A DNA stretch of 64,000 nt, taken from contig JAVZCB010000004.1 of assembly GCA_038874595.1 (NCBI GenBank), forward strand, positions 32,001 through 96,000, written 5' to 3'. Of this stretch, positions 6,819 to 48,667 are shown in pieces (positions within the stretch are counted from its first letter, which is position 1; each line of letters begins with the position of its first letter). Source of the DNA: Candidatus Micrarchaeia archaeon (GTDB taxonomy: Archaea > Micrarchaeota > Micrarchaeia > CAILAH01). The notes under the pieces are model-generated. The model saw nothing but the letters and a program-made list of their open reading frames with translations. It searched no databases and was not told where the DNA came from. The position numbers and the translations under genes were made by a program.

Positions 6819-8021
6819 TTAAAACTTGAAATAATCAGTTATTCTCTTCTGGCTGAGCACAACGTCGTTTTTCAGGTAAACCGATATGTCATTTGAAAGA
6901 ATGTGCTTTGCGTAAGATAACATATCTTCAAGGGATGAAAATTTGGTGGCGCCGGCCTTGAATGCATTACGGACATTCTCGCGGACCTGCCATACGCCTA
7001 CGGGGACCATATAGCCCGGCTCGACCTCCCTGATTACTATCGCACGTGCCTGGCGCCTGCGCTCAAACAGGTGCTCAACAACAGCATAACGTGATGCGTA
7101 GTACCCGCCGGCCTGCTGCTCTGCATATTTAGTCCTGCCTTCGAATGGCTCGTGCTCTTTCGTGATAAATGTGCCGGTTTCTGATAGGTTCCACGTGGTG
7201 CCGTGCGCCCACGCCTCGTAATTCTCAAACTCCCATCTGCCTGGAATGAGCATCACAACATACCTATTGCTCAGGTAATAGGAGGTGTAAAGCTCATAAT
7301 CAGATATCTCCGGGGCTTCGCGTATGGCCTCGAGATATATCTTTGCAATCATATCATCCATTGCAGTGATACTCCACCTTGTTGGGACAAGGCGCTTGCG
7401 GGCATTCTCACCAAAGATGCCTGCACTGAACACACGAGTCAAATAGTAATTGTCATACCCCCTGTAAAGCAGTTCCTTGACAGCTACTGAGGCCTTAATG
7501 TTTTCGCTTGCAAGCGAATCTATGCGCTTCGGTATCTTCGCATTGCCAGTTATCCTGTAGTTCTCGAGCTGGCCTATCGGGCCCATCGGCTGGGTCATAG
7601 GCGAAAACTCAACCTCAGGCTTGGGGGCATACTTAAACTTTATTTCAACATCAACCGGCTCCTGTGATAGCACGAGCTCCTGCATATCTGAGATATACTT
7701 ATCCTTAGCGAGCACTTCGCGCTTCACAGCACTCCTAAATAATTTTGACCTTTCCTCTACTATCTTGTCCAGCGGCTGCCCGAACATCCTGCGCGGGTCA
7801 TCCTCAACAGGGGTATCACTTGCCATAGCCCCAACCGCTACCACCGGGTATCCAACGTGCCCTACAAATATGTTTGGAGGTGATGGGCCAAAAACCTCCG
7901 TCTTGACATCTGCAAAAACCTTGTTCTGGATATTAAGCCTCTGCAGTATAGGGCAGTAATCAAGGCCACATAAGAGACGAGAACCTTTGCACGGGACACA
8001 TAAATGCGCTGGTGGCATCAT
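6819..8021 (-). CDS. nreA: Archaeal DNA repair protein Nre
   Basis: CxxCKG..LCGxxxCP N-terminus, RLVPTRWSITAMD, GGYYASR, PVGVWQVRENVR and C-terminal PIP box QKRITDYF. Start placed at the ATG following an AGGTG RBS. Confidence 0.92.
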   Translation of the reverse strand: MMPPAHLCVPCKGSRLLCGLDYCPILQRLNIQNKVFADVKTEVFGPSPPNIFVGHVGYPVVAVGAMASDTPVEDDPRRMFGQPLDKIVEERSKLFRSAVKREVLAKDKYISDMQELVLSQEPVDVEIKFKYAPKPEVEFSPMTQPMGPIGQLENYRITGNAKIPKRIDSLASENIKASVAVKELLYRGYDNYYLTRVFSAGIFGENARKRLVPTRWSITAMDDMIAKIYLEAIREAPEISDYELYTSYYLSNRYVVMLIPGRWEFENYEAWAHGTTWNLSETGTFITKEHEPFEGRTKYAEQQAGGYYASRYAVVEHLFERRRQARAIVIREVEPGYMVPVGVWQVRENVRNAFKAGATKFSSLEDMLSYAKHILSNDISVYLKNDVVLSQKRITDYFKF

Positions 8022-8106
8022 ATCAATCACACACCTAAAGGTCATTGACAAGCCGCTGCATGGCTGTTCACACCACATACGGCACATGCTTGCTTAAATT
8101 GTTGGG

Positions 8107-9006
8107 GTGTATGCTTTAATAGTTAATTGCACTAATTCTGCTGTGGATGCTGCTGAGTTCTTCAACGAGTATTTTGTCAGGCCTATCATAATGCACGAAG
8201 GGTATAACTCAATCAACACTATCACCTATGCAATCATAGCAGTCATTGCAGCTTTTCTTATTTATAAGTTATTCAGAAAAGCTGGTGCTGAATTCAACAG
8301 GGATTTTATTGTGCGTGTAATCCCCTATATACTGTTGGGCTCAACAGTACGTGTGGTTACAGACAGCATAACAACCGGCGGGATGCAAGCATACGTGGGG
8401 CCCTTCAGGCCTGTATACGACGTTATTCTTGCAAGCCACATATACGATTATGGGTTCCTGACGGCAAGCCCGGGAATATTTTTCGTGATTGGGATTTTTG
8501 CAATAGCAACCATGTATTATTCATACAGGAGCAGGAACTATGACTTCGGTGCCAAGCTTGCATTTGCACTGTTCGTATTACATCTCATAATCCTGCTTCC
8601 ATTGTTTACGAATGTCACTTTTGGAGCACTCATAATAATACTTGCGGGTAGCATATGTGGGCTCTATATGGCATTCAAAAAAGAAAGTACAGTACCAATG
8701 CACTGGCTCGTGGTATTCTCGCAGGCACTTGACGGCAGTGCAACCTTTGTAACACTGGATATATATAATAGAATGCACAACGGGGGATATGTTGAGCAGC
8801 ACGTGCTTGCCAACCATCTCGCCTCAATTGCTGGGGACTCGATGGTTTTATTCCTGGCACTTAAGGTATTGCTTGCAATAGGTATTGTGTGGCTGCTCGA
8901 GAAGGAAAAAAACCAAAATGAGAAGGGATACATCGCACTGCTCATCATCATATTTGGGCTTGCACCCGGCGTGCGTGACCTGCTCAGGCTTGTGTGTGGT
9001 GTTTAG
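8107..9006 (+). CDS. DUF63 family membrane protein
   Basis: GYNxINTxxY, TxSPGIFF, LDGSATF, YVEQHVL and GLAPGVRD motifs. True start may be slightly downstream. Confidence 0.85.
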   Translation: MYALIVNCTNSAVDAAEFFNEYFVRPIIMHEGYNSINTITYAIIAVIAAFLIYKLFRKAGAEFNRDFIVRVIPYILLGSTVRVVTDSITTGGMQAYVGPFRPVYDVILASHIYDYGFLTASPGIFFVIGIFAIATMYYSYRSRNYDFGAKLAFALFVLHLIILLPLFTNVTFGALIIILAGSICGLYMAFKKESTVPMHWLVVFSQALDGSATFVTLDIYNRMHNGGYVEQHVLANHLASIAGDSMVLFLALKVLLAIGIVWLLEKEKNQNEKGYIALLIIIFGLAPGVRDLLRLVCGV

Positions 9007-46774: not shown

Positions 46775-46944
46775 CACGGCACACATCTACAGTTGCCGTT
46801 GGTGGTAGGGCCAAGCAAGCAAAGATTTGCGGGCGCCGGCTCCCTACAGCTTCGGTTGCCGGGGGTTGATAAGGGTATGCTTTCGGCATCGGCCGAAAGA
46901 TGCGCCTTTTGCTTTTTGCAAAAGTGCGCCGCGCTGGGGGCCCT
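46775..46944 (+). ncRNA. Putative structured non-coding RNA directly 5' of tRNA-Ser
   Basis: GC-rich intergenic block closed by AGGGCC(46807-12)/GGCCCT(46939-44), with several hairpins including a C-UUCG-G tetraloop. G-U pairs favour the + strand. Confidence 0.5.
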
Positions 46945-46947
46945 TAT

Positions 46948-47070
46948 GCCGAGGTGGCAGAATCCGGTAATGCGTACGCCTTGAGAGCGTATGTCCGAAA
47001 GGACTTAGGAGTTCAAAAGGAATCACTGGCGATTTTCTGCTGGTGGTCGATGAGAATCTCCTCCTCGGCG
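46948..47070 (+). tRNA. tRNA-Ser(UGA) with a 39-nt intron at 59/60 (47018-47056)
   Basis: Acceptor GCCGAGG/CCTCGGC plus G73; anticodon arm TACGC-CTTGAGA-GCGTA; long variable arm GTCC-GAAA-GGAC; T-arm AGGAG-TTCAAA|T-CTCCT interrupted by a BHB-like intron. Confidence 0.93.
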
Positions 47071-47167
47071 CTTTTTTCTCATTTCTCTTTATCGATAATC
47101 GATAATCAGTATATGCTCGCCTCGGAGGTTTTACCTAATGGTAAAAACCCTGCAGCACAGCTCCAGG

Positions 47168-47187
47168 TCTCCTCCTCGGCGCTTTTT
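47168..47187 (+). repeat. 20-bp exact copy of the tRNA-Ser 3' exon plus T-tract (47057-47076); att-like remnant
   Basis: TCTCCTCCTCGGCGCTTTTT occurs at both positions. Confidence 0.8.
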
Positions 47188-47226: not shown

Positions 47227-48588
47227 TTAGAATTCAAGGTTTTGCATCATATCCCTGATATTATGCACTTCAACAAGGTTAATGATATCCTTCTTCTGCG
47301 TGCGCACCGCGGCAGTGAACACAACCGTATCCTTCTCCTCGATCAGGCCGTGCTCAAGGCAAAACAGTGCAGCACGTGGAAGGATATGCTTCTTTGGCAT
47401 TGCTGTCCACATAACCGGTATAACATTATATAATAAGCTCATCTGCGCCGCAACTTCCTGGCTTGTTGTGATGGCAATGAGAGGTTTCGGCAACTTAAAC
47501 CTTGAAATCACCTGCGCACCGTAACCGCCGCGTGTTACCACCACAATCTTATCAATCTCTTTGTTTGATGCAATCGAATATATTGTATTGCTTAATATCT
47601 GCGATGTTGGGTCAAGTGATTTGACGTGCTCGGTGCAATTAATCTTCGTTTTAACATAGGGCGCAATCCGCCTACCTACTTTCTTGATTGCACGCACTGC
47701 ATTAAGCGGGTACTTGCCAACAGCGGTCTCATTAGAGAGTAGGATTGCGTCTGCACCATCCAAAACAGCGTTTGCAATATCACTCACCTCTGCACGTGTC
47801 GGTACAGGATTGTTTATCATGGAATAAAGTACTTGCGTGGCCACAATGCTCGGTTTGGCATGCTGATTGGCAATATCAATTATTTCCTTTTGTATTATCG
47901 GAACTTCCTCTGCCGGAACTTCAACACCCAAGTCACCACGTGCAATCATAACACCATCTGCCTCCCGGATAATTTCGTTTATGTTGCGCACGCCATCCCA
48001 ATTCTCTATCTTTGCGATTATCTTCGCGCGCGTATACTTCCGTGCCTCCCTGACATCGCGTGCAGTACGCGTAAACGAGAGTGCCACAAACGACGGGGCA
48101 GTAGAGCGGAGCACCTCAACATCGGGTTTCTTAAGAATCGGAAAATTAAACGTCCGCTCTTTCATATTAATGCTCATCCTGTCCTTTATAGTTACATTAT
48201 CATGCGCTTCAAGCCCAATCATGCCTTTTGACCTTGACACAACCTCCATCTCAACAAGGCCATCATCTACATACAGTAAATTGCCAATACGTAAAAAAGA
48301 GTACATATCCTGGTCAAAACATGGCTGTGCGCCGCCCGGCCTTCCTATTTCCAGAGTTTCGCCTTTCTTGAGCGTGATTGCCTTTTGTGTGCGTATCCTT
48401 ACCTCCGGCCCTGAAGTGTCAAGCATAACCGGCTTATTGTGTTTTGCTATGAGATTATACTCACGCACCGCATCTGCAACTGATACGTGTGATAGGTTTA
48501 AGCGGACAACATCACTTTCAGCAAGCACCTGCGCAAGCACTTTGCTATCATAAAGCGAAGGCCCATACGTTGAGATTACCTTAACCAT
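47227..48588 (-). CDS. pyk: Pyruvate kinase
   Basis: RLNLSH, LDTSGPEVR, IIAKIEN, MIARGDLGVE, PTRAEVSDIANAVLDGADAILLS.ETAVGKYP motifs. Confidence 0.96.
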   Translation of the reverse strand: MVKVISTYGPSLYDSKVLAQVLAESDVVRLNLSHVSVADAVREYNLIAKHNKPVMLDTSGPEVRIRTQKAITLKKGETLEIGRPGGAQPCFDQDMYSFLRIGNLLYVDDGLVEMEVVSRSKGMIGLEAHDNVTIKDRMSINMKERTFNFPILKKPDVEVLRSTAPSFVALSFTRTARDVREARKYTRAKIIAKIENWDGVRNINEIIREADGVMIARGDLGVEVPAEEVPIIQKEIIDIANQHAKPSIVATQVLYSMINNPVPTRAEVSDIANAVLDGADAILLSNETAVGKYPLNAVRAIKKVGRRIAPYVKTKINCTEHVKSLDPTSQILSNTIYSIASNKEIDKIVVVTRGGYGAQVISRFKLPKPLIAITTSQEVAAQMSLLYNVIPVMWTAMPKKHILPRAALFCLEHGLIEEKDTVVFTAAVRTQKKDIINLVEVHNIRDMMQNLEF

Positions 48589-48667
48589 GATGTATAATCT
48601 CAAGCCAAATTAATAAAATGTGCTGGCTTAAAAAGCAGTGTAAAGAAAAGAAATAAAGTGCTGCGTT

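Follow-up and report, generated by a model that had tools for sequence, protein, structure and literature searches.

What kind of element lies immediately upstream of the tRNA-Ser(UGA) gene in this archaeal contig? A first-pass annotation, made from the letters alone, had described positions 46775-46944 as an unassigned multi-branch structured RNA, and had suggested either a novel ncRNA that is co-transcribed with the tRNA and released by its 5′ processing or a conformational switch. The window, i.e., the whole stretch of 64,000 nt that was analysed, spans positions 32001-96000 of contig C4 in an archaeal genome of 0.92 Mb with 93.5% completeness (G000; G, C, L and f label genomes, contigs, loci and families). 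In our judgement, the segment is quite probably a small non-coding, polar and non-autonomous mobile repeat of Micrarchaeia, inserted before a formerly leaderless tRNA-Ser gene. The locus is composed as follows.

45614-46735, minus strand: MscS mechanosensitive channel gene (mscS), an ORF with a Pfam MS_channel match, divergent from the tRNA gene
46739-46746, plus strand: TATA-like box, the putative promoter element of the tRNA gene, recognized by ortholog comparison
46948-47070, plus strand: tRNA-Ser(UGA), with exon 1 at 46948-47017 and exon 2 at 47057-47070 (Rfam RF00005, 43.4 bits, E 7e-8)
47018-47056, plus strand: T-loop intron of tRNA-Ser(UGA) at position 59/60, 39 nt long; its central helix (UUCA with UGAG) is BHB-like
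47077-47187, plus strand: hairpin module of 91 nt, then an exact 20-nt duplicate of exon 2 and T-tract (47168-47187)
47227-48603, minus strand: pyruvate kinase gene (pyk), an ORF with a Pfam match, convergent with the tRNA gene

Neither ARAGORN nor an Rfam search of the window at gathering thresholds detected the tRNA-Ser(UGA) gene, and the output of a relaxed ARAGORN run was noise. Relaxed introns at 59/60 are cleaved by the epsilon2 EndA of ARMAN-2 (PMC3239211). Downstream of the gene, the 20-nt duplicate of exon 2 begins at the splice junction. The tRNA-Ser gene on contig C3 has the same downstream arrangement, with the module repeated at C3:54785-54987, and in two relatives (G007 and G008) T-loop introns have antisense starts that are similar to the end of the 91-nt module. 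A Pfam match for tRNA splicing endonuclease near the start of contig C7 (C7:174-661) falls on two open frames, possibly due to a frameshift, an intron or an assembly error, and the Pop5 match in this genome is below the cut-off. The window also contains, at 36193-42882, an ORF of 2229 aa whose start is signal-peptide-like and in which long stretches are coiled-coil-like.

Synteny with mscS is kept in G002, G003, G006, G007, and G008, and the locus of G001 is rearranged, with pyk as the sole neighbour kept. Two of the five syntenic tRNA-Ser(UGA) orthologs (G001 and G006) are leaderless, and the other three (G002, G007, and G008) carry inserts different from the one described here. The distance from the TATA-like box to +1 is 33 nt in G001 and 32 nt in G006, neither of which has an insert, 102, 85, and 191 nt in G002, G007, and G008, respectively, and 209 nt in G000. 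Because of the distance of 32-33 nt in the leaderless orthologs, the start site in G000 is expected near position 46771. The promoters of G000 and G002 align up to the expected +1 and diverge beyond it; therefore, about 176 bp have been added between the promoter and the tRNA. The gene was formerly leaderless, and the repeat entered between its promoter and +1. From its position, the insert of about 176 bp is probably transcribed as a leader. That this leader is cut off by tRNA 5′ processing, as first suggested, is plausible: the segment follows the TATA-like box and precedes +1, the genome encodes an RNase P RNA, and the acceptor stem is still predicted to form with the leader attached (P ~0.84). 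Conservation at orthologous loci on the transcribed strand, as expected of a dedicated ncRNA, was not found.

The insert at 46772-46947 consists of two tandem units, diverged from each other, of a polar repeat, the right end of which lies on the +1 of tRNA-Ser(UGA) without a gap. In a unit, a linker and a G-rich core are followed by a closing stem, which surrounds a short loop or, alternatively, two hairpins that are exchangeable.

46772-46799, plus strand: left degenerate end of the insert, with an ACGGCA/TGCCGT hairpin, ending in CTAC and linker
46790-46847, plus strand: repeat unit 1, with G-rich core, closing stem GTAGGG/CCCTAC and a shortened hairpin 1
46848-46947, plus strand: repeat unit 2, with linker, GGTTGCCGGGG core and closing stem ATAAGGG/CCCTTAT, its right end on the tRNA +1

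The left end looks like the remains of a further unit. A BLAST search of the segment against its own genome gave matches of 85-100% on contigs C2, C3, and C5, where arrays with an identical 16-nt right end abut the +1 of tRNA-Cys, tRNA-Ser(GGA), and tRNA-Phe. Unit 1 is locally 85-97% identical to these copies and has lost hairpin 2 relative to those on C2 and C5; in unit 2, hairpin 1 is replaced (46880-46899) and hairpin 2 is conserved (46902-46927). The genome has six arrays in total: four in sense at the +1 of Ser(UGA), Ser(GGA), Cys, and Phe tRNAs, and two in antisense that start at the first intron base of tRNA-His (T-loop, 59/60) and tRNA-Gln (anticodon, 37/38). In 11 expanded units, which are related sequences and hence only indicative, pairing within the internal hairpins amounts to 96%, and three changes are double-sided. 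Between genera, the closing stem is altered on both sides. A covariance model built from short units scores the expanded units of the window weakly, and their membership therefore rests on direct identity. The linker and core at 46848-46870 look like a head-to-tail fusion of the 3′ end of tRNA-Cys/Ser with the 5′ end of a tRNA (by eye and post hoc, about 17 of 21 nt agree), and the unit may possibly derive from a circular or tandem tRNA. Perfect tandem repeats are common in this genome, and many other tandem repeats cluster at its tRNA genes; the genes for tRNA-Leu, Val, Ala, Ser(GCU), and Asn have further tandem hairpin repeats, situated in leaders, introns, or trailers.

C1:24517-24732, C1:143671-143908, C2:669-815, C2:58755-58873, and C6:28409-28533: other tRNA-associated tandem hairpin repeats

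All motifs quoted in the first-pass annotation are present where it had placed them (ACGGCA at 46776 and TGCCGT at 46794; AGGGCC at 46807 and GGCCCT at 46939-44; GGCGC at 46832 and GCGCC at both 46902 and 46926). The plus strand folds at -78.8 kcal/mol (z -2.11), a value reached by 5 of 200 shuffles; folding of the segment is only moderately above chance, and z is -2.82 for the minus strand. Most of the hairpins are real, but ATGC/GCAT has a pair probability of ~0 because an 8-bp hairpin at 46880-46899 (P ~0.98) replaces it. The helix AGGGCC/GGCCCT, taken to close the whole structure, is indeed favoured in the window copy (P ~0.9), but it spans two repeat units and pairs the left stem of one unit with the right stem of the next. 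In homologs, each unit is closed by itself (46805-10 with 46842-47, and 46869-75 with 46941-47 in the present numbering), a fold that costs 1-4 kcal/mol more in the window copy. When the units are read in this way, the structure ends 0 nt from the tRNA instead of the 3 nt originally given. The proposed alternative folds of GGCGC have pairing probabilities of ~0.35 with the copy at 46926 and ~0 with that at 46902, and therefore no two-state switch is predicted; the alternatives derive from repeated modules, of which both GCGCC copies are parts.

Known RNA families were also considered. The statement that 5S, SRP, and RNase P signatures are absent holds, with no match at the locus at E<=10, and diverged forms of these RNAs are ruled out by the presence of all three true genes elsewhere (C4:124856, C2:58425, and C5:56176). 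Splicing endonuclease and RtcB are also encoded elsewhere in the genome. Among 4227 Rfam models searched with gathering and E-value thresholds, the tRNA alone was significant, and no ribozyme or other Rfam family besides tRNA matched the locus at E<=10. The anatomies of HDV, pistol, twister, and hammerhead ribozymes, mapped by eye, gave no consistent fit. A mini-tRNA formed by pairing of the linker with the G-rich core holds in G000 and breaks in G003 and G006, and guide-target pairing of the core GGT with the flank has inconsistent spacing between leader and intron copies. BoxC-type intrastrand triplexes (PMC4666352) were found neither in the window nor in any of 20 units, using our own type-1-like implementation of the ITxF purine-type rule (three stems of 6-15 nt, loops of 1-6 nt).

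Where else does the repeat occur? A covariance model built from 20 short units was applied to 150 sampled genomes, and matched seven of the eight genomes of the family and five of about 140 other genomes of the class (one probably false); matches beyond the own family fell in a few genomes of families f11, f26, and f27. Of the family loci with E<=0.05, 22 had not contributed to the training set; hand classification placed 13 of them in antisense at a 5′ splice site, two in sense at +1, one in sense at the start of exon 2, and six elsewhere, so that the right end is 0-1 nt from a tRNA processing site at 16 of the 22 loci, although these counts are not independent because the genomes are incomplete MAGs and the copies are related. 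A simple rule describes the tRNA sites: copies are in sense at +1 or exon-2 start and in antisense at the first intron base, and the right end faces the exon in every case, 0-1 nt away. Locus L083 is a second case of a copy at the exon-2 start. Family copies elsewhere form the start, or the whole, of true introns; the window copy is not an archaeal BHB tRNA intron, being located upstream of +1. At L067 (G001:C57, about 7900-8140), a Thr 5′ exon is followed by a sense copy and then by an Asn-like exon-2 start, which is either a chimeric gene or a misassembly.

Copies outside tRNA genes are found at gene ends, including after stop codons, or in frame within proteins. Direct duplications of 13-68 bp from the right end accompany 6 of 13 such copies, and two metagenome copies likewise carry flanking duplications; among 32 copies at tRNA genes there is none, barring one shared T-arm match. 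In a phosphomannomutase gene (L131 / L072; G003:C17:13866-14009), three 48-bp units are in frame at the N-terminus, where the copies replace the native start present in G000. TatD of G001 (L306:437-1240) has 22 additional codons in frame compared with TatD of G000, with an element-like hairpin inside. The element was not found in phage and viral collections, a pattern scan of genome contigs gave mostly chance matches in G+C-rich bacteria, and no description of the family was found in the literature on Micrarchaeota/DPANN tRNA repeats.

The repeat is multi-copy, patchy at orthologous sites, and polar, with a precise right (3′) end, a variable left (5′) end, and duplications of variable length; the last three are features expected of a retro-element, the duplications being found at non-tRNA copies only. 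The leader would be transcribed and removed by RNase P, so that the insert is tolerated, and intron copies would likewise be tolerated through removal by the splicing endonuclease. With less certainty, the repeat may spread by copy-and-paste in which RNA processing ends serve as joining points for its right end: a polymerase provided in trans would prime from exon-1 3′ ends, or jump between templates at RNA 5′ ends. Such joining would explain the sense copies at RNA 5′ ends, the antisense copies at exon 3′ ends, the variable left ends, the tandem units, and the variable-length duplications. We propose this RNA-end-coupled route only tentatively. Its most specific form, a SINE-like archaeal element inserting, via a non-canonical reverse-transcribing activity, at the RNA ends that RNase P and splicing endonuclease generate, we regard as unlikely; if true, a SINE-like element would create or enlarge tRNA introns and leaders, which is a direct mechanism of intron gain. 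Searches for reverse transcriptase and Y1 transposase in 13 incomplete genomes revealed no mobilizing enzyme: G000 and 11 of 12 relatives gave no RVT_1 match, no Y1_Tnp match exceeded the cut-off in the 13 genomes, and neither enzyme tracks with the element. A search for Thg1 in G000 was also negative. The one reverse transcriptase found, of 426 aa and on G001:C26 (L306:1255-3557), is preceded by an AAC-rich repeat and accompanied by a plausible target gene, and by this context it looks like a diversity-generating retroelement.

Movement could instead occur at the DNA level, by an HUH/Y1 nuclease of the REP/RAYT or IS200 kind or by template-switching of replication at the hairpins of tRNA genes; selection would then retain only those copies that are processed out. 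The asymmetric hairpin, the conserved core 5′ of the foot, and the strand polarity are as in REP/IS200 ends (PMC3184786), and such a route has been proposed for the introns of Thermoproteales (PMC4090602). Copies after stop codons and in frame in genes, and the many other tandem repeats that gather at tRNA genes in G000, fit it as well. The lack of Y1_Tnp above cut-off in 13 incomplete genomes may argue against it, and so does the foot of the stem, which varies (GTAG, ATAA, CGAA, GCAG, AAAG) with no conserved tetranucleotide: GTAG is present only in G000 and one copy of G001, and outside these the foot covaries to other sequences. There is no conserved target either, the flanks being GCC, TTTGAA, CCAG, and others. 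To our knowledge, HUH elements do not make long duplications such as those seen here. Selection alone could account for the exact +1 position, because a leaderless gene tolerates insertion only there, but it could not account for the first intron base. We consider DNA-level movement somewhat unlikely, and slightly less likely than the RNA-end-coupled route.

Is the segment, rather, a functional RNA that aids or regulates tRNA maturation, as a switch, a processing guide, a tRNA-like element, or a self-cleaving ribozyme? Its stable fold with covarying stems, its retention in several genera upstream of tRNAs for Ser, Cys, and Phe, and two post hoc observations, i.e., that on inspection nt 1-3 of the tRNA could pair with GGU of the core and that linker and core resemble a tRNA junction, are in favour. 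Set against these, orthologous genes do without the element, the majority of the new copies lie outside tRNA genes or, in antisense, within introns, and neither a ribozyme match nor the switch pairing was obtained. Moreover, the stems of copies antisense to the transcript have 14 G-T against 2 A-C pairs in the element orientation, and 16 of 17 such copies fold better in that orientation, that is, on the non-transcribed strand; the structure therefore belongs to the strand of the element and not to the transcript that carries it. For a multi-copy repeat that is absent at syntenic orthologs, antisense in tRNA introns, and in or beside protein genes, the novel dedicated ncRNA or conformational switch originally suggested is not supported, and a functional leader in the broader sense is quite improbable. 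Local slippage duplication or an assembly artefact, without any mobility, would suit a MAG assembly with numerous perfect tandem repeats. This is very improbable and largely refuted by the divergence of the units in the window, the occurrence of the module at unlinked loci and in independent assemblies, and the covariation of its stems.

For annotation, 46772-46947 should be described as a repeat insertion in a tRNA leader, not as a new RNA gene. The arrival of archaeal tRNA introns has been stated as an open question (PMC4090602; bioRxiv 10.64898/2026.10.13.758758), and the recent preprint found no general route. The present family offers a donor that can be traced, a fixed rule of polarity, and orthologous sites both empty and filled, and therefore the route by which tRNA introns and leaders arrive becomes testable.

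Among known systems, transposed BHB introns of Thermoproteales are the first to be compared; related sequences occur there at different tRNA genes and positions (Fujishima 2010, as relayed in PMC4090602). The repeat is similar in its recurrence at different tRNA genes, at positions 37/38 and 59/60, in a lineage with a relaxed-specificity endonuclease. In contrast, what moves here is a polar hairpin module and not the whole intron, and it is also found in leaders, gene ends, and coding frames, and mostly in antisense within introns. With REP/RAYT palindromes and the Rickettsia RPE (PMC3184786), it shares a short, G+C-rich, strand-polar hairpin, tandem arrays, and placement after genes or in frame in proteins. 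Unlike REP/RAYT, it has no conserved GTAG-type foot and a low copy number, no RAYT was found, tRNA processing sites are targeted, and the duplications are long and variable. Like MITEs, it is non-coding, folded, and non-autonomous, with direct repeats beside some copies; unlike them, it has no terminal inverted repeats spanning the element, as the conserved core reaches 15-20 nt left of the terminal stem, no partner IS was found, and the duplications (13-68 bp) are not of fixed length. SINE-like and other target-primed retro-insertions have a precise 3′ end, a variable 5′ end, variable-length duplications, and head-to-tail units, all of which recur here, whereas a poly(A) tail is missing and no suitable reverse transcriptase was found. 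SINE-like retro-insertions are, as far as we know, not an established class in archaea. By analogy, the element would work most like a REP/MITE-type or SINE-like repeat, and its behaviour would parallel the transposition of introns in Thermoproteales.
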